IMG/VR virus record: IMGVR_UViG_3300045988_108118 | DNA from: a virus | Strand: one strand, 5' to 3' | Length of the DNA stretch: 46,320 nt | Shown here: piece after piece, positions 2,713 through 46,320 of the stretch | How positions within the stretch are numbered: position 1 is the stretch's first letter | How the letters are laid out: each line of letters begins with the position of its first letter | Translations under genes and position numbers: made by a program | Notes under the pieces: model-generated | Database searches by the model: none | What the model was told of the DNA's origin: nothing | The model's input: only the letters and a program-made list of their open reading frames with translations

Positions 2713-3143
2713 AAGGCGGTAATAACATGAAGATTATTCTCGATGTAGGCGCATATATGCCAACTTATGCTCATGATGCTGATGCTGGCATGGATTTGCG
2801 TACTCCTGTGGCGTTCATCGTACCTGCACATGGCAGCTATACGGTGGACACTGGTGTTCACATCCAGATTCCTGCTGGGCAAGTAGGATTTATTAAGTCT
2901 AAATCTGGGTTGAACGTGAAAGGCGGTTTGACAGCGACAGGGGTCATAGATAGTGGTTTTGCGGGGAGTATCCGCGTAAAGCTGTACAATCACAGCGACG
3001 AGGACTATATGTTCAGCCGTGGCGACAAGATTACGCAACTTGTCTTGCTCTATATCGCAAAGCCGGAGAATGGGTTTGAGGTCGTTGACCATTTCGAGGA
3101 AACGGAGCGCGGAAACAACGGGTTTGGTTCAACAGGGAGATAA
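2709..3143 (+). CDS. dut: dUTP diphosphatase (trimeric dUTPase).
   Basis: Motifs AGMDL, GVIDSGFAGSI and RGNNGFGSTG. ATGA overlap with the upstream stop; an alternative start is at 2727. Confidence 0.95.
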   Translation: MKGGNNMKIILDVGAYMPTYAHDADAGMDLRTPVAFIVPAHGSYTVDTGVHIQIPAGQVGFIKSKSGLNVKGGLTATGVIDSGFAGSIRVKLYNHSDEDYMFSRGDKITQLVLLYIAKPENGFEVVDHFEETERGNNGFGSTGR

Positions 3144-3145
3144 GC

Positions 3146-3409
3146 ATGAATGTAAGCGTAGAACATCGACTCTTGATGGGTCACATGGACGTTGAAAAGA
3201 TTCTGGAACGTAAGCGTCAACTTAGGATTCGCAAGGCAATGTCTAACTACCAGTTAGCAGTACACAATAAGCAGGAATGTGCAAGGGAAACGTTTCTTGA
3301 TGAAGTTCTTGAAATTGAAAGAGATTTTCAAGAAGAACTGTCCGAATACGACAAAATGTTTGATTATGCGCTCTATTTCGAGCGCGAGAAAAAGGAGAAC
3401 GACAAATGA
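3146..3409 (+). CDS. Hypothetical protein.
   Basis: 87-aa ORF with RBS GGGAGA, tightly packed in the operon. Confidence 0.65.
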   Translation: MNVSVEHRLLMGHMDVEKILERKRQLRIRKAMSNYQLAVHNKQECARETFLDEVLEIERDFQEELSEYDKMFDYALYFEREKKENDK

Positions 3410-6025: not shown

Positions 6026-6100
6026 TGCGGATTAGCCAAGTGGTAAGGCATGGGACTTTGACTCCCTGATTCGCTGGTTCGAGTCCAGCATTCGCAACCA
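6026..6100 (+). tRNA. tRNA-Gln (anticodon TTG), CCA encoded.
   Basis: Manual cloverleaf: acceptor TGCGGAT/ATTCGCA, D arm GCCAAGTGGTAAGGC, anticodon loop CTTTGAC, T arm GCTGG-TTCGAGT-CCAGC. It aligns along its full length with the E. coli tRNA-Gln layout. Confidence 0.9.
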
Positions 6101-6119
6101 CGTTTACTTGTCCATAAGT

Positions 6120-6147
6120 AACCCTCCTATTCAGCGCGAGGGTTTTC
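6120..6147 (+). terminator. Hairpin plus U-run after tRNA-Gln; possible partial terminator or processing signal.
   Basis: AACCCTC-N11-GAGGGTT followed by TTTCGTGTTCATTTT. Confidence 0.35.
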
Positions 6148-6238
6148 GTGTTCATTTTACCTCGTGCGCGAGCATTTTATACCTCCGCCCCGATATGCGT
6201 ATTCAGTCCGTGGGGTTCAAGACGCAGCGGACTATTAT

Positions 6239-6313
6239 GGCTCTTTAGTTCAACGGTAGAACACCCGGCTCATAACCGGGCAGTCGATGGGTCGACACCA
6301 TCAGGAGCCACCA
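6239..6313 (+). tRNA. tRNA with CAT anticodon (elongator Met or Ile2-type; not initiator-like), CCA encoded.
   Basis: Acceptor GGCTCTT/AGGAGCC, D arm GTTC-AACGGTA-GAAC, anticodon arm CCCGG-CTCATAA-CCGGG, T arm GATGG-GTCGACA-CCATC. The G1-C72 pair argues against an initiator. Confidence 0.9.
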
Positions 6314-6429
6314 CCGGGTTCTCCATGCCCGAATTCTCCTTTATACGTTCTCCAAAGTTTGCCGCAGACTTATAGCAGTTGAGGTTTAGGCATTTCCCTT
6401 AACTGTGAGTTAGAAGCGGCACTTTTTAT

Positions 6430-6505
6430 GCTGGATTATCTCAACTGGTAGAGAACCTGTTTTGTAATCAGGGGGTTCGGGGTTCAAGTCCTCGATTCAG
6501 CACCA
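6430..6505 (+). tRNA. tRNA-Thr (anticodon TGT), CCA encoded.
   Basis: Acceptor GCTGGAT/ATTCAGC, D arm TCTC-AACTGGTA-GAGA, anticodon arm CCTGT-TTTGTAA-TCAGG (one T-T mismatch at 31-39), T arm CGGGG-TTCAAGT-CCTCG. Confidence 0.8.
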
Positions 6506-7037: not shown

Positions 7038-7199
7038 ACAGATCGCGGCAAGCCTTATTTATCCCGCACAGCCAACTTTGTTATGCCAGTGCCATGGGCA
7101 GACATAACAATGGACAAGGTCGACTCGCACCAAAGCAACGGCGAGCAGTCAGGAGCAAGACCTGCGTGTGGGCTTAATTTGAATTTAGAGGTGCAGATA

Positions 7200-7355
7200 G
7201 TGGACATGCTGGTAAATTGTATCCAAGCAGTAGCAGTCGTAATTATTATGATTCTTTGCTTTATTGCGGGCTATGAAGCTGGCAAGAACGATGCCACTAC
7301 GCACAGCAAACGCCGTGAATATCCTATCATGATGGAGCACAAGCACGGCGAATAA
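7200..7355 (+). CDS. Possible small membrane protein.
   Basis: GTG 7200 or ATG 7206 follows GAGGTG. One TM helix (VNCIQAVAVVIIMILCFIAGY). The ORF-track start at 7083 has no RBS. Confidence 0.4.
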   Translation: MDMLVNCIQAVAVVIIMILCFIAGYEAGKNDATTHSKRREYPIMMEHKHGE

Positions 7356-7400
7356 ACTTAGCCATTCTCTTGCGGTTTTCATATTCAGTATCCTTTCGGG

Positions 7401-7434
7401 AAAAGACCTCTAGCTGCAACTAGGGGTCTTTTCC
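7401..7434 (+). terminator. Rho-independent terminator closing the plus-strand left block.
   Basis: AAAAGACCTCTAG-ctgcaa-CTAGGGGTCTTTT, followed by TTCC. Confidence 0.8.
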
Positions 7435-7448
7435 TATGCAGATAGGGC

Positions 7449-7572
7449 TTGATTTTTGCCGCAAACAGTGATAGAATATAGACGGGTGACAGGGTTTGAC
7501 GCGCTGTTTGTCATAAAGCAGAACTCCTTTTCTCGAAAAAGGCTCTTGCGAGTAATCGCAGGGGTCTTTTTT
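7449..7572 (+). ncRNA. Candidate small RNA unit 1: promoter plus an approximately 90-nt transcript plus terminator.
   Basis: TTGATT (7449-7454), 17-nt spacer, TGaTAGAAT (-10 at 7472-7477). Hairpins TGACA..TGTCA and CCTTTT..AAAAGG. Terminal TGCGA-gtaa-TCGCA followed by GGGGTCTTTTTT. No RBS and no credible ORF. Confidence 0.45.
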
Positions 7573-7573
7573 G

Positions 7574-7684
7574 TTGCAATCAGAGCAGAATCGTGGTACA
7601 ATGGAGATGCTAACAATCCTAGTTTGGGATTTTTCCAACTCAAAGGCTTTTGCGGATAAACCCGTGGAAGCCTTTTTTGTTTTC
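7574..7684 (+). ncRNA. Candidate small RNA unit 2: promoter plus an approximately 70-nt transcript plus terminator.
   Basis: TTGCAA (7574-7579), 17-nt spacer, TGgTACAAT (-10 at 7597-7602). Terminator AAAGGCTT-N18-AAGCCTTT followed by TTTTGTTTT (7642-7684). Confidence 0.5.
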
Positions 7685-7738
7685 GCGCGAATTTTTGAAA
7701 TGACAATAGGGAAGAAGCTAAATTCGAGTTAAGCGAGC

Positions 7739-7796
7739 GAAAAAAAGAAAGGGAAAGAGGGAGGAAGGAGTAAGAGAATAGAGAGAGATAGAGATA
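7739..7796 (+). repeat. Homopurine tract: 32 nt of pure A/G at 7739-7770, then purine-rich to 7796.
   Basis: Direct reading: gaaaaaaagaaagggaaagagggaggaaggag, then taagagaatagagagagatagagatag. Confidence 0.9.
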
Positions 7797-7812
7797 GTAT
7801 ATTATATACTAT
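7794..7812. repeat. 19-nt perfect AT-rich palindrome.
   Basis: ATAGTATAT-t-ATATACTAT (9-bp arms). Confidence 0.95.
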
Positions 7813-7960
7813 GGTCTTTTTTATTAAAAATTTAGTTAGAGAGATAATACTATAGGCTGCGGCTGTCGCCAGACCCCCGGCCCCCGGCTCCGTGTTCCAC
7901 CGCATACGACGCGCCGCGACGTTGGAAAAGGACGCAAAAGGCATTTGCTAATTGCCATTT

Positions 7961-8176
7961 ATGCCACAAATACGCTACAATGCCCCTGCAAAGCCCTATA
8001 AACGGCTTGCAATGACCTAGGCATATACTTTTATACCTTGCATATAAAACGCCTTAAAGCGCCTCACAGCCCCATTATAGCGCATATGGCTATATAGTGC
8101 CCTATATTATGCCATCTCCCCTACCCTACCGCGCTATACATGCCCACAAATAACGCTTATATATCCCCTCCCCTGC
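7961..8176 (+). repeat. Imperfect direct repeat (about 30-37 nt) bracketing a patchwork of TATA and GCCC motifs.
   Basis: ATGCCACAAATACGCTACAATGCCCCTGC (7961-7989) versus ATGCCCACAAATAACGCTTATATATCCCCTCCCCTGC (8140-8176). Confidence 0.6.
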
Positions 8177-8193
8177 TAACTCTGAGTTAAACC

Positions 8194-8222
8194 AAAAAAG
8201 AGGGCTGCAAAACAGCCCCTCT
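8194..8222 (-). terminator. Rho-independent terminator ending the minus-strand early block.
   Basis: On the minus strand: AGAGGGGCTG-tttt-GCAGCCCTCT followed by TTTTTT. Confidence 0.8.
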
Positions 8223-8301
8223 AAAATCTATCTTGCGTGGTATCCTTGACCCTTGCCAATGAAAGCGGAATCAAACCAGCGCAAAAGCAATATTGCAAGT
8301 A

Positions 8302-8403
8302 TCAATGCTTTTTGCCCCCTTTGCTGTACAGGTAAACGCCCAACTCGCATAGCCCAGGAACTACCATAAAATATACCAGGATAGCAAATACGCCAGTATA
8401 CAT
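8302..8403 (-). CDS. Possible 33-aa membrane peptide, translationally coupled to the upstream gene.
   Basis: TGATG stop/start overlap with 8403-8795. Translation MYTGVFAILVYFMVVPGLCELGVYLYSKGGKKH. Confidence 0.4.
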   Translation of the reverse strand: MYTGVFAILVYFMVVPGLCELGVYLYSKGGKKH

Positions 8404-9016: not shown

Positions 9017-9154
9017 TATAAAATATAAAACCCCCTTAAAATGTTTTTGTTTTACTAGATTCTATAATGGATTATAACACACTCTATTCATTTACTACAT
9101 AGACAATTATCTCATAGTTATAGACTATAGTTGCAATTAGTATAATATTATATA

Positions 9155-9340
9155 ATTGCCAGTTTTTCCCAGTTTTCCCACATTTTGACAACGTGTCACA
9201 TTACATTGCATCGCATCACATTTTCCACCACATTTACATATTTACCATATTTTACCATTTATCCCACTTTTTCCCACTATTCCCTATTTTTTCCAGTATT
9301 GCCAGTTTTTCCCATCTTTGCCAGCCATATCCATTTTCCA
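9155..9340 (+). repeat. Array of T-tract/CCCA motifs phased at about 10 bp; predicted intrinsically bent DNA.
   Basis: T-runs start at 9163, 9173, 9183, 9221, 9233, 9241, 9250, 9258, 9268, 9287, 9306, 9317 and 9334. Exact 17-mer attgccagtttttccca occurs at 9155-9171 and 9298-9314. Confidence 0.8.
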
Positions 9341-15230: not shown

Positions 15231-16478
15231 TCAAAACGGTAATTGTTGGCCGGAGCAATCCTCAAAGCCATCTTCATCAACTCCGAGTTGTCTTATTTGC
15301 TGCGTTTCTGCGTTGAACACGCAATCAATAGAACCAACTCTGCCCTCTTTGTTCTTGCCAAGAATCACCTTGTAACCATCCTCGTAGCCGTTATGCAGGA
15401 GAATAATCACATCGGACGCTTCCTCGATGCCGCCGGATTCTTTGAGGTCTGCCAGCGTAGGCGGCTGCTGTGCGCCTTGGCGATTGATTTGTGCAAGAAC
15501 AATAGTAACGATTTTCTCATTCTGCGCCATGACATGTAGGTCGTTGATAGCGTTCGTGGTGAGTTCATAGCGGCCCTGCCCGTGCGATTTAACGATTGTC
15601 AGATAGTCTACAAAGACAACCTCTGCGCCACGCCTGACGGCTTCATTGCGAACCCACTGGACAGTTTTGCCAGCTGATGGAACAATCTCAAAGTCAAGCA
15701 ACGCAAACCGTGCCTTGCACTCATTCCAGCGCTTCTTATCTTCATCTGTCAAGCAACGCTTCTTGATGTGCGCCAGCGGAATACCTGCATAAGCTGCAAC
15801 CATGCGGTCAACGACCTTGGCTTCGCTTGTCTCAAAGCTAAAGAACACACACTTATGCTTCATTGCCATGCGTAACATAAAGTTAAGGCTGATTGCAGTC
15901 TTACCAGCTGACGGACGACCGCCAATTACGATTAAGTCTCCGCGCTCAACGTAAGAACAATCGTCCAAATCAGGCAATCCGAACTTGAAGTATTCTGGTT
16001 GTGATTTCTGGTTTTGCTCAAACAATGTGACCGCGCTTTTCGCGTTGGTACTCTCTGCTTCTTTGACTCCGTTAAACGGTACAAGGATGCTCTCTGCCAT
16101 CTCCTGCAAATCTGCGATAGATACAGAAGTAGTCAAAGCTGCGTTCACCATCTCATTAGCTCTGTTCACTACTGTGCGAGTCGTGTAAGAGTCTTTGACG
16201 CTGTTCATGTATAACTTCCAGTTAGATACGCTCGGAAGCGTTTCAGCGTACCGTAGAGCTACTGTGCGCAGCTCCGGGTTAAGGCGAGAAGAAATAGTGG
16301 CAATGTCATAAGCGCCATTCTTCTCAAAGTACGCTTTCTGGCAAACCTCAAAGACTTCCCGGCATTCGTCACTAAAGAACATCTCTGCCGTAATCTCCGA
16401 GAATACCTCACTGCAACACTCCTTTGGCTCTAACAGCAAGCAGCCAATCAGAGCGGTTTCAGAATCAAGACCTTTCAT
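15231..16478 (-). CDS. dnaB: DnaB-family replicative helicase.
   Basis: Walker A is GGRPSAGKTA. DYLTIV..., AQINRQG and LADLKESGGIEEASDVIILLH. Confidence 0.95.
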   Translation of the reverse strand: MKGLDSETALIGCLLLEPKECCSEVFSEITAEMFFSDECREVFEVCQKAYFEKNGAYDIATISSRLNPELRTVALRYAETLPSVSNWKLYMNSVKDSYTTRTVVNRANEMVNAALTTSVSIADLQEMAESILVPFNGVKEAESTNAKSAVTLFEQNQKSQPEYFKFGLPDLDDCSYVERGDLIVIGGRPSAGKTAISLNFMLRMAMKHKCVFFSFETSEAKVVDRMVAAYAGIPLAHIKKRCLTDEDKKRWNECKARFALLDFEIVPSAGKTVQWVRNEAVRRGAEVVFVDYLTIVKSHGQGRYELTTNAINDLHVMAQNEKIVTIVLAQINRQGAQQPPTLADLKESGGIEEASDVIILLHNGYEDGYKVILGKNKEGRVGSIDCVFNAETQQIRQLGVDEDGFEDCSGQQLPF

Positions 16479-18196: not shown

Positions 18197-18225
18197 ATTA
18201 TAGCAGACTTTCTGAACTATGTCAA
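18197..18225 (-). promoter_or_regulatory. Consensus sigma-A promoter.
   Basis: On the minus strand: TTGACA (18220-18225), 17-nt spacer, TATAAT (18197-18202). Confidence 0.75.
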
Positions 18226-22587: not shown

Positions 22588-22616
22588 TTGCAACCATCGA
22601 GCGCGTGTGGTATAAT
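22588..22616 (+). promoter_or_regulatory. Early-right promoter, divergent from and back to back with 22526-22554.
   Basis: TTGCAA (22588-22593), 17-nt spacer, TGgTATAAT (-10 at 22611-22616). Confidence 0.8.
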
Positions 22617-22629
22617 AAAGATGTTATCA

Positions 22630-22735
22630 GAAGTCTTGTTTGGTGTGGTGGCTGAACAAGGCCATACAACTAAATAAGACTTCGAGCTTACTCTGATTGT
22701 ACCCACCACGACAGTCAGCGTAGGCTTTTCTTTTT
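22630..22735 (+). promoter_or_regulatory. Structured leader: hairpin 1 followed by a 15-bp terminator hairpin with a U-tract (attenuator-like), copy 1.
   Basis: GAAGTCTT/AAGACTTC (22630-37 and 22676-83). Stem 22685-22699 pairs with 22712-22726. U-tract at 22726-22735. Loop 7-mer CCACCAC is complementary to GTGGTGG at 22645-51. Confidence 0.6.
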
Positions 22736-22753
22736 ATATTAAGAGGTGCAGGC

Positions 22754-23242
22754 ATGCAGGATTTTATAGAAGATAGTCTCGTAATCATGACGAAAAGCAC
22801 AATGGACGCATTTCTAGCAACGGATTGCTTTTCAGAATTGGTAGGTTTGTATTCCTTTTACTATTACACGGCAAAGTGGCAAAAGACAAATCAACCTAAA
22901 TGCACCACAGAATACGTAGCCAACGGCTTGCACTGGACAGTCCCAAAAGTCAGAAAATTCAAGAAAAAACTTATAGACCTTGGCTTGATTGAGGACGTTG
23001 TAGTCAAAAACGGGAAAGGGCAAGTAGCAGGACACTACATAAAGATAAAATATGTCGTGTCATCGCAGAAAATTAAAGATATTTCTGCGGAAATCCACCC
23101 ATCTGAAATTGCACGGGGTGGAAACGTTCACGGGGTGGACGACAAGGGAGACAAATGCTTAAAGAATAAATATAATAAATGCTTAAAGAAAAATAATAAA
23201 ATGCTTAACGGCAAAAACGAAAAATCAAAGCTGAACTGGTAA
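22754..23242 (+). CDS. Winged-HTH protein (DnaD/replication-organizer N-terminal-like or regulator).
   Basis: RBS AAGAGGTG. YVANGLHWTVPKVRKFKKKLIDLGLIEDVVVKNGKGQVAGHYIKIKY is a wHTH-like pattern. Confidence 0.8.
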   Translation: MQDFIEDSLVIMTKSTMDAFLATDCFSELVGLYSFYYYTAKWQKTNQPKCTTEYVANGLHWTVPKVRKFKKKLIDLGLIEDVVVKNGKGQVAGHYIKIKYVVSSQKIKDISAEIHPSEIARGGNVHGVDDKGDKCLKNKYNKCLKKNNKMLNGKNEKSKLNW

Positions 23243-34072: not shown

Positions 34073-34468
34073 TTACGCTCCTGTGCCGATAATGTCAAAC
34101 TTAAAATCACGATACAGGCCATCGTAGAAATAAGCACTGTACGCAGAACCACTTGACGTAGAGCAGTAGGCTTCAAATGTCTCCGGGGTTCCGTCCTCTT
34201 TCGGGCAAGTAAACTGGAATGTCTTGCCTTGGACAAGGTTATTCATGTAAGCCATCTGCTCTCTCGTTACGGCCTTGTAAGAGAACTTTGCTTTAGGGAT
34301 TCTTTGTTTGACCCACTCGATGTGCATAACTCCATCTTGCGTGCGGCCAGACCCATCTGCGGAGATGGAGTTCCACTCCATTTGAACTCCACCGTCCGCA
34401 TCAGGTTCATACAGGGGCGAACCGTTGACAAAAAATTCTGTTGACATTTTTCTGTCAAGACTAGCCAT
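34073..34468 (-). CDS. Distal tail protein (short Dit-like).
   Basis: 131 aa, directly downstream of the TMP. Assigned by position. Confidence 0.6.
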   Translation of the reverse strand: MASLDRKMSTEFFVNGSPLYEPDADGGVQMEWNSISADGSGRTQDGVMHIEWVKQRIPKAKFSYKAVTREQMAYMNNLVQGKTFQFTCPKEDGTPETFEAYCSTSSGSAYSAYFYDGLYRDFKFDIIGTGA

Positions 34469-37230
34469 TAGTATGCACCCCCGTTAATTACAGATTGCTT
34501 GCGTTCGTAGCGAGAAGCCGCACGACCGATTGTATCATCACCGATAGATACAGACATATCCTTGTTGTTAATTGCCTGCACGACAGCCATACAGCCCTGC
34601 CAGAACACGTCTGCCATGGCTTGGTTGGCGTTCATTTGGGCTTCACCAACAGAAGATGCGTCAATGCTTACAGACCCGTTCACATTGCCAATGCCGAGTG
34701 CAGGAACACTCAACGCGGATTGCATACCAGCTGCAAGACGGCCAGTGGCAGCATAGACTAAGTTGGAGTTATCATCAATGCCATTAGCCAAGCCGCGCAT
34801 GAAGTCTGGCATCCATTGTTCATAGCTGCGAAGCGGCCCCTCGTCAGGACGAGAGAAGTGCAACAGGCTAGTAATCTTGTCGGCAACCGCGTGAATTGCG
34901 TTTCCTACTGCGTCTTTAGCCCTCGAAATGCCATCAGCGAAGCCTTGAATCATATCTTTGCCCCATGTAAGAGCATCATTGACAAGGCTCGACAGGTCAC
35001 ATTTCTTTTTGATGTCGCCTATGACATCGGTGACTTTACCAAAGAAAGCGCGAATACCGTTCACTAAGCCTTGGACAATCATGTTGCCAAAGTCAGAGAA
35101 CACTGTGGACGGAGAATGAATACCAAGTTCTTTTTTAAATCTGGCAGGGATTTCAAGTGCCCAATCAACAACTTCTTTAATTGCGCGAGGAACACCCTCA
35201 ACGATGCCCTTGATAAATCCGTCAATGATAGCACCAGCAGCATCAATGAATCCGTTCACCATTTCCTTGATTCCCTCGCCAACGCCATTAACGAAGTTGC
35301 GGAAAGTTTCAGAGTGCTTGTAAAGTGCAATAAATGCAGCGCCAAGAGCCGCGACAACGAGAATAACTGCGTTTAGAGGGCCACCAACAAGCATAACTGC
35401 GTATTGGACAAGGAAAATTGCAGTCTTTACGGCAGTGATGACCGTTATAGCAGTTCTAATAACGCCGATAACGCCAGTAATAGCACCGACAACAATCGCA
35501 ATTACGCCAACAATAGGAGCAATGACACCAATGACGTACCCAATCTTTTGAGAAATGCTTTGCACGGCATCGCTGTTTTGATTCAAGTAATCAGTTAAGG
35601 TGAAAATCTTTTCGAGAATCGGGCCAAATATATCTTCTGCAATGCCCCAGATAACACCCAGAGAATCAGAGAAGCCTTGAATAAAGCCGTCTGCGGCAGG
35701 TGCAAGAACATTGTTTATGATAGATGCAAGTAGCTGCATTGCGTTATCAAGGAACCACAACGCATCAGCAAACATCTGTGCACCAACACGACCCTCGCCA
35801 AAGAAGTTTTCAAGAATCGAGATGTCGATGGTAGTCATCAGATTTCCGATTGCAGAGAACAACTCTTGCGCACTGGCAAACAGGCTATCCTTGTGCGAAT
35901 CCCAGATTGACTTCATGTTATCAAGAGCATCCTGCCAAGCCTGTTTCAGAGGGCTGACAATTGCTTCCATATCAGGAGTTACCTGCTCTTGGCTCCACAT
36001 TGAACCTGGGTCGATTCCGAGAGTTTCACCAGCACCCGAACCAGACTTAGATTGAACAACTTCAAGTTCGTCAAACCCAGCAAGGAACGCTTTCTGCGCC
36101 TTAGAACCTTGTTTCAAAGAGTTAGCATAGTTGACATTGTTCTTAATTGCCTTGTTATAGAACGAACGCCCAGTTAAGGCAGAAAGGAACTGCGACAGCA
36201 TATTAAATGCGTTTGCAATCGCTGATGCCAGCATATTGAACGCAGGTGTCAGCAAGGAAATGATAGGCTCTACCGCGGCCATGATTGCGTTACGCATGAA
36301 CAGCATGTTAGACGCAATCGAGGATACGTTATCGTTGAAGCTGGCAAGACTACCAGTAGCGCCAGTGTCGAACTGCTGCGACCAGATAGCCATAGCTTGT
36401 GTGGCTTGGATGGCAGCGTTCATAATTTCTTTGATAGCGCCACGAACTAAACGATAGAACGTAATATTTTTGATAGAACGAGACAGCTGGGCAAAGAACG
36501 TGTCGTTCTTTTTGACAGCACCAGTTGCATCATTAGCGCTTCGACTAAAAAATCTAAGAGCAGTAGAGGCTTGGTTTGTACTCTGCGTTGCAGTTTGTGA
36601 CGCAAGAGAGCGCTGATATTCTGCGGCAGCTAATTGCTCTGCGGCTCGCATGGATTCTTCGGCAGCTGACAGGCCACCAAACATGCCAACATTATCGCCG
36701 CCAAGAGAAGATTCTGTGTCTTTAACGGCACCATTAACGGCTCGTTTTAGCTGCTTAAAGCGGTCTAACTTCTTCGTTGCAGCGTCAAGCTGAACGCCGA
36801 GCGCATTGTATTCGCTTGCAACAGATTGTGCGCTGTCGCTTGTTATGCCTTGTTCGATGCTAACTTTGCGATACTCAATCATCAGCTGCGCCATCTGGGC
36901 TTTCAGATTCGTTACCTCTGACTTAGCCCGTCTAAACGCATCGTTGATTTGTTCTTGACGCTCTTTCACCTGCTCATAAGTAGCAGGGTTGGCTTTCGTT
37001 TTAGATACAGCAGCATCAGCAGCAGCTTTTGCGTCTTTCATCTTTTGAAAGCTATCAGCAACTTGGGCTACTTGTCCCTTTATGGCCTGACCAAATTGAG
37101 AGGACGCAATTGTTTTTGTAACGTTTGAAACAGTGTCGCCCAACTTAGAGAATTGATAGTTGAGCTGGCCGAGAGCAGTAAGCGCTTGGTCAACTTTAGC
37201 GCTAATTTCAAATCCGAGTTCATCAGCCAT
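34468..37230 (-). CDS. Tape measure protein.
   Basis: 920 aa. Coiled-coil N-terminus, long hydrophobic Gly/Ala/Ile/Val segment, position after the G/GT chaperones. Confidence 0.9.
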   Translation of the reverse strand: MADELGFEISAKVDQALTALGQLNYQFSKLGDTVSNVTKTIASSQFGQAIKGQVAQVADSFQKMKDAKAAADAAVSKTKANPATYEQVKERQEQINDAFRRAKSEVTNLKAQMAQLMIEYRKVSIEQGITSDSAQSVASEYNALGVQLDAATKKLDRFKQLKRAVNGAVKDTESSLGGDNVGMFGGLSAAEESMRAAEQLAAAEYQRSLASQTATQSTNQASTALRFFSRSANDATGAVKKNDTFFAQLSRSIKNITFYRLVRGAIKEIMNAAIQATQAMAIWSQQFDTGATGSLASFNDNVSSIASNMLFMRNAIMAAVEPIISLLTPAFNMLASAIANAFNMLSQFLSALTGRSFYNKAIKNNVNYANSLKQGSKAQKAFLAGFDELEVVQSKSGSGAGETLGIDPGSMWSQEQVTPDMEAIVSPLKQAWQDALDNMKSIWDSHKDSLFASAQELFSAIGNLMTTIDISILENFFGEGRVGAQMFADALWFLDNAMQLLASIINNVLAPAADGFIQGFSDSLGVIWGIAEDIFGPILEKIFTLTDYLNQNSDAVQSISQKIGYVIGVIAPIVGVIAIVVGAITGVIGVIRTAITVITAVKTAIFLVQYAVMLVGGPLNAVILVVAALGAAFIALYKHSETFRNFVNGVGEGIKEMVNGFIDAAGAIIDGFIKGIVEGVPRAIKEVVDWALEIPARFKKELGIHSPSTVFSDFGNMIVQGLVNGIRAFFGKVTDVIGDIKKKCDLSSLVNDALTWGKDMIQGFADGISRAKDAVGNAIHAVADKITSLLHFSRPDEGPLRSYEQWMPDFMRGLANGIDDNSNLVYAATGRLAAGMQSALSVPALGIGNVNGSVSIDASSVGEAQMNANQAMADVFWQGCMAVVQAINNKDMSVSIGDDTIGRAASRYERKQSVINGGAY

Positions 37231-43801: not shown

Positions 43802-44065
43802 ATGGAATTTAAGCCACTCACAGCCAAAGAACTTGAATTTCTGGGCTATGGCTCACACACTACAATCAGCAAATACGTCGCCATGGGGATGCCAAGACAC
43901 GGCGTAAGAGGGCGGTACTGGTTCATTGAAGAAGAAGTACGCAACTGGATTCTATGCCGTGGAGAACCGATTTACATTGCTTGCCCGTGCTGCGGGAAAA
44001 TGATTAAAGTGCCGAAAGAGGTGATTCTAAATGCTAAACACTCCGAAGATGGCGAGAACGCCTGA
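43802..44065 (+). CDS. Excisionase/MerR-type HTH plus zinc-ribbon protein; candidate small terminase or regulator.
   Basis: LTAKELEFLGYGSHTTISKYVAMGMP....YWFIEEEVRNWI; CPCCGK. Confidence 0.7.
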   Translation: MEFKPLTAKELEFLGYGSHTTISKYVAMGMPRHGVRGRYWFIEEEVRNWILCRGEPIYIACPCCGKMIKVPKEVILNAKHSEDGENA

Positions 44066-45749
44066 GCAGGCAGAAGCCAAAGTCAGAATTATGAAGTTCA
44101 ACAAGCTGGTTCGAGACAATCCGACAGATGTTAAACTCGTAGAAGCAGCGCTCTCCGCTTGCGCAAATGCAACCGCAAACGATGACGGGACGTTTAACAC
44201 AACAGGAGAGGATAACGAATTTGCGTTTAAATCAGCGATGAATCTGTACAACGTCTGCCTTTGGAACATCGCAAACACGAGAAATCTGGATGAAAAGAGA
44301 AAGTGGGTCGCTCTGGCAAAGAGTTCTCTGCTGTATTTGGCTCACAAGTATTTTGATTCGTTCATGCTTTACTTGGAGTTCGACCGTAGGCCAGACAAGA
44401 GATTCTACGCTCCGCGACGGAAACAGTTGAAGCGCATTGTTGACGGTTTCCAAGATGTGGCTGACGGAAAGATTGACCTATTGACAGTTAGCCAGCCGAA
44501 GCGTACCGGCAAGACTACCCTTGGCCTAATGTTCGTTATTTGGAGAGCGGGGCTACTACCTGATAAGTCGTGCTTGCTGGCTGGCCGTGGAGATTCTCTG
44601 GTAAAGTCGTTCTATGATGAATGTCTTAACATCATGCAAGACAAAGCAACTTACAACTATTGGGATGTTTTTCCGGGCTGCACGATTGCAAATACCAACG
44701 CAGACCAAAAAACTATTGACCTTAACTCAAAAAAGCGTTTTAGTAGCATCGTATGCAAGTCACTTAGCGGACAAATGACCGGCGTCGTCGAGGCTTCTAA
44801 TATTCTATATATTGATGACCCCGTTCAAGACCAGCTTGAAGCGAGAAATATTGAACGTTTAAACACTCTTTGGGCTTCTGTCTCTGATGACTGTATGGGT
44901 CGCCGCAAAGAGGGAGTGCCAATTATTGCGCAGGGAACTCGATTCAGTATCAATGACCCGATTGGTAGGCTTCAATCAATTGCACCGCAGATGGGGTGGA
45001 GAGTTCGCATTGTAGAAGTGCCAGCACTTGACCCCGTTACCGATGAAAGCAATTTCCATTATAAGTACGGATTGGGGTTTAGCACCGAATATTATCGAAA
45101 CGAACGGAAAATGCTTGCTGATATTCAGTGGCAAAGTGAATATCAACAGCGACCAATTGAGGAACGCGGTACGGTGTTCAGCCGAAACGATTTACAGTAT
45201 TACGACAAACTACCAGATTTGGAGTGGGATGCTATTCTTGCGGTAACAGACCCGTCCGAGGGTAAAGGCGATAATACCTGCATGATAGTTGCTTTCGTAT
45301 CTGGAACGGAAGCCTACATCGAGGACGTTGTGTTCTCAAATGCCCTGCCGGAATATAATGCGCCTAAGTGCGGAATTATGTGCGTTAAGTATGGAGTTAA
45401 GATTTGTCAAATCGAATCTAACGCTAACGGTTTACTATTCGCTGAAAAGGTCGAGACTCAAATTAAAGCCATGAACGGTAGAACCAGCGTAAGAACGAAA
45501 CGCACAACAGCTAACAAGGAAACAAAGATTATTGTTGCATCCGACAATATTCGTAACCATTTCTGGTTCAAGAATCCTAACTACTTAGACCCGGCAAGCG
45601 AATACGCACAATATCTCAGAAATTTGTGGTCTTACAGCCAAGTTTCCAAAAATCTGACCGATGACGGCCCGGACTGTACCGCCATGATGGAGAACATGAT
45701 AGGAACACTGACAGCAAGTAAAGTGACCGCCTTTAAAAGACCGTTTTGA
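44031..45749 (+). CDS. terL: Terminase large subunit.
   Basis: Walker A-like QPKRTGKTT, Walker B ILYIDDP, C-terminal nuclease-type region AVTDPSEGKGDN...; RBS GAGGTG. Confidence 0.9.
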   Translation: MLNTPKMARTPEQAEAKVRIMKFNKLVRDNPTDVKLVEAALSACANATANDDGTFNTTGEDNEFAFKSAMNLYNVCLWNIANTRNLDEKRKWVALAKSSLLYLAHKYFDSFMLYLEFDRRPDKRFYAPRRKQLKRIVDGFQDVADGKIDLLTVSQPKRTGKTTLGLMFVIWRAGLLPDKSCLLAGRGDSLVKSFYDECLNIMQDKATYNYWDVFPGCTIANTNADQKTIDLNSKKRFSSIVCKSLSGQMTGVVEASNILYIDDPVQDQLEARNIERLNTLWASVSDDCMGRRKEGVPIIAQGTRFSINDPIGRLQSIAPQMGWRVRIVEVPALDPVTDESNFHYKYGLGFSTEYYRNERKMLADIQWQSEYQQRPIEERGTVFSRNDLQYYDKLPDLEWDAILAVTDPSEGKGDNTCMIVAFVSGTEAYIEDVVFSNALPEYNAPKCGIMCVKYGVKICQIESNANGLLFAEKVETQIKAMNGRTSVRTKRTTANKETKIIVASDNIRNHFWFKNPNYLDPASEYAQYLRNLWSYSQVSKNLTDDGPDCTAMMENMIGTLTASKVTAFKRPF

Positions 45750-45752
45750 TGG

Positions 45753-45781
45753 TTGACTTTTGCAGCAAAATGTGCTATCAT
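45753..45781 (+). promoter_or_regulatory. Promoter for the wrap-around wHTH gene.
   Basis: TTGACT (45753-45758), 17-nt spacer, TATCAT (45776-45781). Confidence 0.75.
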
Positions 45782-45790
45782 ACTGGTATA

Positions 45791-45897
45791 GGTTCTATTA
45801 GGAAGTTGCGGGCCGGATAGACCCGAAAACTGAATAGAGCCTAACAAGAACAGCTATCAAGATGTAACCGCAACTACGTCTTGGTGGCTGTTTTTGT
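45791..45897 (+). promoter_or_regulatory. Structured leader: hairpin 1 followed by a 16-bp terminator hairpin with a U-tract, copy 2.
   Basis: GGTTCTATT/AATAGAGCC (45791-99 and 45833-41). Stem 45849-45864 pairs with 45877-45892. U-tract at 45891-45895. Loop 7-mer CCGCAAC is complementary to GTTGCGG at 45805-11. Confidence 0.6.
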
Positions 45898-45919
45898 TAT
45901 CAAATGGAGATGTATAACA

Positions 45920-46320
45920 ATGATTATGCGCACCGAGAAAAACAAAAATTACACAGTGATGGGCAACTATCATCTGCGGGACAAAGAATTGTCTCTAAAA
46001 GCCAAGGGATTGTTGTCTATTATGTTGAGTTTGCCTGACGGCTGGAACTTCTCAACACAGGGGCTTACTACGCTTTCAAGTGACGGAGAGACAGCAATTC
46101 GGTCTACACTCAAAGAATTGGAGCAAAAAGGCTACCTAAAGCGCAATAAAGTACGTATTAACGGTAAAATTGTTGATTGGGAGTATGTTGTCTACGAGCA
46201 AAAACATCCATGTGTTCCAGTTGATGAAAGTCCAGTTGATGAAAACGTACATGTGAATAATCGCACCCAATTAAATACTAAAGAAATAAATACTAAAGAA
46301 ATAAATAATTTCTCAACATC
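45920..46320 (+). CDS. 5' part of the wHTH replication-initiator-like gene; continues at base 25 of the window.
   Basis: MIMRTEKNKNYTVMGNYHLRDKELSLKAKGLLSIMLSLPDGWNFSTQGLTTLSSDGETAIRSTLKELEQKGYLKR. The ORF is open to the window end. Confidence 0.8.
   Translation, partial: MIMRTEKNKNYTVMGNYHLRDKELSLKAKGLLSIMLSLPDGWNFSTQGLTTLSSDGETAIRSTLKELEQKGYLKRNKVRINGKIVDWEYVVYEQKHPCVPVDESPVDENVHVNNRTQLNTKEINTKEINNFST
46273..46302 (+). repeat. 15-nt x2 in-frame tandem duplication (NTKEI x2).
   Basis: aaatactaaagaaat is read twice, followed by a partial third copy. Confidence 0.9.

Follow-up and report, generated by a model that had tools for sequence, protein, structure and literature searches.

Described small RNAs (sRNAs) of phages and prophages include DicF, IsrK, AgvB/AsxR, and 24B_1. 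The oop RNA of phage lambda is about 77 nt long and has its own promoter and terminator. Species 1 and 2 of phage T4 (rnaD and rnaC) are small stable RNAs encoded in the tRNA gene cluster and processed from the tRNA precursor transcript. RsaE/RoxS and the 3' domain of RNAIII are C/U-rich sRNAs of Gram-positive bacteria that occlude Shine-Dalgarno (SD) sequences. To our knowledge, phage sRNAs have been documented mainly in phages and prophages of E. coli and Salmonella, and we know of almost nothing on the sRNAs of metagenome-only phages of gut bacteria of the Gram-positive type. Trans-acting sRNAs of phages and prophages have been reviewed (PMC12197685), and PreS/LPR1 of lambda represents a stand-alone trans-acting sRNA of a phage (bioRxiv 10.1101/2024.10.31.621285). 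Additionally, RNA anti-CRISPRs (Racrs) have been described as solitary CRISPR repeat units in phages (PMC10651486).

Here, we analyzed a phage genome from IMG/VR (record IMGVR_UViG_3300045988_108118) in which two compact units lie in tandem on the + strand at 7449-7684. With moderate confidence, we read units 1 and 2 as separate genes of an uncultured gut phage, whose small non-coding RNA products, about 90 and 75 nt long, respectively, would act in trans.

Setting of the units in the phage genome

The window, i.e. the whole 46,320-nt stretch, is a circularly closed, complete assembly, since its terminal 24 nt (1-24 and 46297-46320, agaaataaataatttctcaacatc) are identical; the genome measures about 46,296 bp (~46.3 kb). 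An ORF from 45920 runs on into position 1 across the circle junction. The phage is uncultured, comes from the gut, and is siphophage-like by gene content. Specifically, it encodes TerL (44031-45749), a tape-measure protein (34468-37230), and a DnaB-like helicase (15231-16478), together with a dUTPase, a ThyX-type thymidylate synthase (Pfam Thy1), and an HNH endonuclease. INPHARED, searched in near and distant mode, yielded no DNA relative among isolated phages. A TerL comparison gives, at 33-44% identity, uncultured phages from human faeces and phages of Eggerthella or Clostridium innocuum as the nearest, and because of these relatives the host is probably a gut bacterium with sigma-A-type promoters. 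A host/prophage search with the neighboring 130-aa protein returned no relative among 185,579 species genomes.

The + strand early block extends from ~43.8 kb via the numbering origin to 7355 and comprises nucleotide-metabolism genes, small ORFs, and three tRNA genes (Gln-TTG, Met-CAT, and Thr-TGT; 6026-6505, + strand), the latter located ~950 nt upstream of the units. At the end of the block, mechanical ORF calling gives a 90-aa frame (7083-7355), where the actual gene is probably the 49-aa one at 7206-7355 (MLVNCIQ...), which is preceded by an AGAGGTG SD. The 49-aa product, likely a small membrane protein, is called in its exact form on 22 public contigs and the 90-aa version on none. The intrinsic terminator of the early operon follows at 7399-7440 on the + strand (inverted repeat 7399-7434; fold of -25.6 kcal/mol, z = -7.4), and unit 1 begins 15 nt beyond it. 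The units sit at the point where the + early block converges with a long - strand block, which is closed by its own terminator (8219-8201), and the cumulative GC skew turns at this convergence.

The next called gene after the units is a 33-aa gene on the - strand (8302-8403). The ORF-free stretch at 7700-8200 is segmented in composition. It combines a run of purines (GAAAGGGAAAGAGGGAGGAAGGAG...) with a palindrome made of A and T only and its T-run (7794-7825), and with a GC-rich block (CAGACCCCCGGCCCCCGG) and then degenerate repeats; this architecture recurs in the related contig L005 with a different sequence. Further along, eight copies of a TTTTTCCCA-type motif are arranged with ~10 bp spacing at 9141-9328, in a region of 700 nt that has no ORFs and lies upstream of the 130-aa gene on the - strand. 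These copies may represent origin iterons or an array of regulator-binding sites.

Structure and conservation of the two units

Unit 1 opens with an extended -10 promoter at 7449-7477 on the + strand, which reads TTGATT(7449-7454)-17-TGaTAGAAT(7469-7477). The predicted RNA covers 7484-7572 (+ strand; ~88-90 nt, with ends inferred from promoter and terminator), and its fold (-33.7 kcal/mol, z = -3.8) is more stable than that of any of 200 shuffles. The intrinsic terminator occupies 7536-7572 on the same strand and has the form AAAAAGGCTCTTGCGA-GTAA-TCGCAGGGGTCTTTTT; its arms, GGCTCTTGCGA (7541-7551) and TCGCAGGGGTC (7556-7566), are joined by GTAA and followed by T6. Directly upstream lies a core at 7512-7533 (+ strand, CATAAAGCAGAACTCCTTTTCT) that is invariant in the five aligned variants of unit 1 (alignment A7), with CAUAAAGCAGAACUCCUUUUCU preceding the terminator. 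The CUCCUUU within this core equals the anti-SD core sequence of 16S rRNA, and 7512-7533 is the candidate seed.

A single base, G7573, separates the T-run of unit 1 from the -35 hexamer of unit 2. The promoter of unit 2, again with an extended -10, lies at 7574-7602 on the + strand and reads TTGCAA(7574-7579)-17-TGgTACAAT(7594-7602). The predicted RNA spans 7607-7684 (+ strand; ~72-78 nt, with predicted ends), and its ~76-nt form folds at -24.7 kcal/mol (z = -3.9), which also exceeds all 200 shuffles. It consists of a 5' single-stranded part (GCUAACAAUCCUA), a small hairpin (GUUUGG...CCAAC, 7622-7639), and the intrinsic terminator (7642-7684, + strand). The terminator has a 14-bp stem (7642-7655 with 7662-7675), the 6-nt loop ATAAAC, and a T-run, the sequence after the stem-loop (7642-7675) being TTTGTTTT. 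The earlier note had drawn it as an 8-bp stem with an 18-nt loop starting at TTGCGG (7650-7655); this hexamer instead belongs to the stem, pairing from its 5' arm with CCGTGG.

The small 5' hairpin of unit 2 is poorly constrained. Two mutually exclusive forms were compared, of which the GUUGG/CCAAC pairing is better kept (95%) than AAUCC/GGAUU (87% and 54%), and true covariation was found in neither across the 13 variants. The 5' part is also plastic, being 21 nt shorter in L006 and 8 nt longer in L005. The small hairpin is absent from L006, where AUGCAAUUCCUCCAAAA stands ahead of the terminator, and L005 has both versions.

To place these elements against chance, we counted promoters with TTGnnn, a spacing of 16-18 nt, TGn, and at least 5/6 of the -10 hexamer. 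The window contains 11 of them, where Markov shuffles give 1.4 +/- 1.1; apart from those of the two units, most stand in front of genes. Strong hairpins with a T-run occur at 17 sites versus ~5.8 in shuffles, three of the 17 being clustered at 7434-7684 on the + strand. All motifs that the earlier note had assigned to the two promoter-plus-terminator units are found where it placed them. It had, however, rated their promoters as equal to the best gene promoters, and this was too high: they score 9/12 plus TG, as compared with 12/12 plus TG for the gene promoters at 18225 and 17487.

Related contigs were recovered via the 130-aa neighbor, the terminator pattern, the exact 49-aa upstream protein, and the leader of the replication gene; all of them fall within a single narrow cluster, whose gut phage contigs measure ~44-47 kb. 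Unit 2 is carried by the relatives that reach the site, in 13 distinct variants (alignment A6), and a covariance model built on it scores the relatives at 55-105 bits. The exception is L032, which has unit 1 without unit 2. Unit 1 is confined to the sub-lineage of the window (the window, L001, L032, and L078-L087, of which the short contigs L086 and L087 end before or within the units). Both units occur together in the window, L001, and L078-L085; L003-L008, L017-L024, and others have only unit 2. Outside the unit 1 sub-lineage, the block terminator is directly followed by unit 2 in all relatives. When IMG/VR was scanned more widely for the body of unit 1 and for the promoter plus start of unit 2, nothing came back beyond the known contigs and unrelated coding matches.

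The two units nevertheless share one module, since the unit 2 covariance model also finds the unit 1 terminator (35 bits, E about 8e-6). Consistently, the unit 1 terminator (GGCTCTTGCGA..TCGCAGGGGTC) is near-identical to its unit 2 counterpart in the other lineage (GGCTCTTGCGG..CCGCAGGGGTC), and by this sequence likeness it is a paralogue of the relatives' unit 2 terminator. Because each unit occurs without the other, we infer that units 1 and 2 are independent cassettes, with a paralogous terminator in common and different bodies.

Unit 2 stands out from the non-coding DNA around it. Against more distant relatives, its identity is 69-87%, versus 46-59% for the adjoining non-coding DNA and 53-82% for the flanking genes, so that it is conserved no less than these genes. 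Within its promoter, variable positions number 1/6 in the -35 hexamer, 9/14 in the spacer, 0/3 in TGn, and 2/6 in the -10 hexamer; similarly, the promoter hexamers of unit 1 are invariant in the five variants and the spacer varies. The 17-nt distance to a TTG hexamer survives three independent indels. In unit 2 of both L006 and L008, 13 inserted nucleotides supply a new TTGAAA at this distance from the -10, and in unit 1 of L001 a 7-nt duplication does so with TTGCCG.

The terminator stem of unit 2 is kept in the same way. Across the 13 variants 99.4% of cells are paired, although 6/14 pairs vary, and in two pairs both partners have changed, C-G becoming U-A and G-C becoming A-U. Since the stem contains G.U pairs (two to four per variant, four in the window), the hairpin forms only on the + strand RNA. 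The hairpin loop and 3' arm are highly conserved. Because the relatives are close and the compensatory changes trace to very few events, this comparative evidence is supportive of the units and short of overwhelming. The proposal of stand-alone sRNA genes in the earlier note thereby gains support from the comparisons of promoter, stem, non-coding DNA, and reading frame, and it stays a prediction.

Two observations concern the surroundings of the units. A NUMOD4/HNH_3 homing endonuclease gene lies directly after unit 2 in L005 (7128-7930, - strand) and after unit 1 in L032 (about 2900-3270, - strand), as a cassette with its own TTGACA promoter, ~95-nt leader, and terminator. Most other relatives retain only a remnant of the endonuclease 3' end (GGGAGTACCATAAAT) just after unit 2. 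Judged from these sequences, the locus is a hot spot of homing or recombination.

Alternative explanations for the units

Given such a hot spot, some of the structure of the units could be a relic. In its full form, this explanation holds that the units are gene-less promoter-leader-terminator modules produced by recombination or by the gain and loss of morons or homing endonucleases, whose RNA is perhaps made and has no function. We consider it reasonable but unlikely. The layout of promoter, leader, terminator, and gene does occur elsewhere, namely in the NUMOD4/HNH_3 cassette of L005 and L032 and in two modules of the window. One of these (45753-45905) has a strong promoter, TTGACT-17-TGcTATCAT, and a ~115-nt leader ahead of an HTH_36 gene (45920-). 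Its leader forms two long hairpins, the second being a 24-bp terminator (fold of -53.5 kcal/mol, z = -8.4), is nearly invariant in L035 and L036, has no Rfam match, and looks like an attenuator or antitermination leader. The other (22588-22760) has a TTGCAA-17-TGGTATAAT promoter and a ~130-nt leader with two hairpins (z = -6.2) and a T-run after the second, and its gene starts at 22754.

The endonuclease remnant after unit 2, the patchy distribution of unit 1, and the 21-nt deletion tolerated by the body of unit 2 fit a relic as well. However, a functionless promoter should decay, whereas here variation gathers in the spacer between conserved hexamers, and the 17-nt distance is re-established in three indels. 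Unit 2 is also more conserved than the flanking non-coding DNA, and the endonuclease cassette has its own promoter and leader, therefore unit 2 is not its leader.

As a side observation, the 22588 promoter and its first transcribed bases resemble those of unit 2 (AGATGyTA, CTnGTTTGG); the two share TTGCAA-17-TGGTAyAAT-nnAGATGyTA and CTnGTTTGG, a likeness too short to decide homology.

A second explanation takes the locus as an insulation zone, in which a row of terminators blocks + strand transcription from entering the convergent - operon and the promoters are incidental or act as polymerase traps or roadblocks. Four terminator-like sites (7399-7434, 7536-7572, 7642-7684, and 7794-7825) do lie within 430 nt at the convergence, where the - block has its terminator and the GC skew turns. 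Insulation nevertheless needs no promoters, and strong promoters between terminators counteract it; those of the units are conserved and were repaired after indels. Most relatives, moreover, do with one unit fewer. We regard insulation as quite improbable.

Coding functions fare worse. Between the 49-aa gene, which ends at 7355, and the 33-aa gene, no gene is called in 8/8 contigs spanning the interval (10 independent), so gene callers leave the ~950-nt stretch with the units empty, a caution for annotation. Unit 1 contains no ATG-initiated ORF. The only possible internal ORF of unit 2 starts at ATG 7607-7609 (MLTILVGDFSN...), and its RNA might serve as the mRNA for a leaderless or poorly initiated micro-peptide. 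The ATG lies 5-7 nt past the -10, so that a leaderless AUG start is conceivable, and the first 11 codons show synonymous changes (ACA>ACG, CTA>TTA, CTA>CTG, and GGA>GGG). However, these substitutions equally keep or improve RNA pairing.

In addition, the start codon is lost in 6/13 variants, reading CTG in L004, TTG in L005 and L019, and ATA in L081 and L083, and being deleted in L006. Single-nucleotide indels ahead of the terminator shift the frame, which gives products of 11-42 aa with unrelated C-termini, and the ORF continues through the terminator. An SD for this ORF was not found. On the lost starts, the frame shifts, and the missing SD, we reject the micro-ORF as a gene and hold a micro-peptide to be very unlikely, in agreement with the view in the earlier note that neither unit has an RBS or a credible ORF.

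Several regulatory classes were likewise considered and rejected. An attenuator or riboswitch leader would require a same-strand gene directly downstream; past unit 2, the + strand has no such gene in the window or in those L078-L085 contigs that reach beyond the unit, and the next gene in L005 and L032 has its own promoter. A cis-antisense RNA of the oop, sar, or c4 type is discarded for want of a gene on the opposite strand: no credible - strand ORF crosses 7434-7706, and the 90-aa TTG ORF there lacks conservation, as most relatives do not have unit 1. Finally, a type I toxin-antitoxin system would need a small hydrophobic toxin ORF and a convergent antisense RNA overlapping it; it does not fit two tandem units that share a strand, with a micro-ORF that varies among relatives.

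It is highly improbable that the RNAs are decoys for a host defense or another host factor, such as RNA anti-CRISPRs mimicking CRISPR repeats. The order of promoter, short hairpin RNA, and terminator is that described for Racrs (PMC10651486), and the hairpin loop and 3' arm are highly conserved. However, the hairpin is followed by a T-run, like a plain terminator. A degenerate hairpin pattern searched in 185,579 species genomes gave 20 single hits versus ~17 expected, none of them in an array; the scan covered one hairpin pattern. Only one hit was structured; it comes from a Dialister MAG, where it forms the ordinary terminator downstream of an ACT-domain gene.

This terminator hairpin (contig L066, Dialister sp. 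MAG, 1472-1539) is almost identical to the unit 2 hairpin of relatives (GGCCCCTGCGGATAAAACCGTAGGGGTC). The likeness may be chance, the scan pattern having selected it, or a faint hint of the host.

The weakest proposal, put forward as speculation in the earlier note, is that unit 2 RNA pairs in trans through TTGCGG, a match to 6 of 7 nt of GTTGCGG in the leader at 45805-45811, with the CCGCAA loop of the 45849-45897 terminator and modulates leader read-through. The 6-nt complementarity and the strong structure of that leader (z = -8.4) speak for it. We reject it as extremely improbable, since the hexamer is buried in the 14-bp terminator stem of unit 2 and the window has 52 copies of it. The unit 2 of phage 073363 (L001/L035) reads TTACGG, which is compensated by a C>U change in its own 3' arm, and the GTTGCGG and CCGCAAC of the leader are unchanged. 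By this comparison, the base in the hexamer co-varies with its cis partner and not with the leader.

Proposed action and comparison with known small RNAs

If units 1 and 2 are two independent sRNA genes, as we favor, the primary-sigma RNA polymerase of the host would read each unit from its extended -10, and the unit's own intrinsic terminator would end the transcript. As judged from sequence and conservation, each unit would give a discrete, abundant, and untranslated RNA from early infection. The most likely action would be base-pairing in trans through a short, conserved, pyrimidine-rich, single-stranded stretch, which would be AACUCCUUUUCU in unit 1 and the 5' CAAUCCU in unit 2, the latter corresponding to CAAUUCCUCC in L005 and L006. 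Purine-rich, SD-like sites in host mRNAs may be the partners, although this is speculative; C/U-rich sRNAs of Gram-positive bacteria act via such sites. A short UCCU/CUCCU(UU) stretch is common to both units, and it is complementary to the SD sequences that the phage itself uses (AAAGGAG). This shared stretch, a short motif noticed post hoc, suggests SD occlusion.

For targets within the phage, a genome-wide RNAduplex scan, a scan of 120 translation-initiation regions against shuffled sRNAs, and seed-complement searches all remained within chance, the targets predicted for the units being no better than those of shuffled sRNAs. A bolder model is conceivable and, in our judgment, improbable: a family of sRNA cassettes is shuffled at the common terminator module, and anti-SD-mimicking seeds (CUCCUUU; UCCU or UUCCUCC) occlude host ribosome-binding sites in an RNA-based take-over.

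With promoter, terminator, expected ends, and 13 variants of unit 2 plus five aligned variants of unit 1 defined, the units represent clean candidates. If confirmed, they would mean that uncultured gut phages carry modular sRNA cassettes, and would offer a handle on post-transcriptional manipulation of the host.

Among known families, no match to the units was found. Rfam 15 returned only three tRNAs at gathering score, and within 7300-8300 at E<=10 it returned two chance hits of 14-19 bits versus cut-offs of >90. The hairpin of the units, while resembling Racrs in being a small phage hairpin RNA with its own promoter, differs in having no similarity to any CRISPR array in the 185,579 species genomes. 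Like T4 species 1 and 2, the units would encode small phage RNAs near phage tRNA genes (here 6026-6505); unlike them, they lie ~950 nt downstream, past two ORFs and a terminator, and have their own promoters and terminators. The lambda oop RNA is similar in size, in its self-contained promoter-terminator architecture, and in its position at the edge of the early region, but it is cis-antisense to the 3' end of cII, whereas the units have no gene on the opposite strand.

RsaE/RoxS and RNAIII provide the proposed working mode by analogy, as the units also place a pyrimidine-rich, single-stranded motif (CUCCUUU; UCCU or UUCCUCC) beside a terminator hairpin. The motif is a single short stretch here rather than repeated UCCC loops, and Rfam gives no match, so no homology is implied. 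The stand-alone phage and prophage sRNAs are likewise close: they are short non-coding transcripts with their own sigma-70-type promoter and intrinsic terminator, as predicted for the units, which would presumably act by base-pairing on host or phage mRNAs. Those RNAs come from Gram-negative, mostly Hfq-dependent systems and have a mapped transcript and target, whereas the units are predicted from sequence and have no sequence or Rfam similarity to them. Taken together, the units show four of the features by which sRNA genes are generally recognized, namely the absence of a conserved ORF or RBS, an intergenic position, an own promoter, and a rho-independent terminator.
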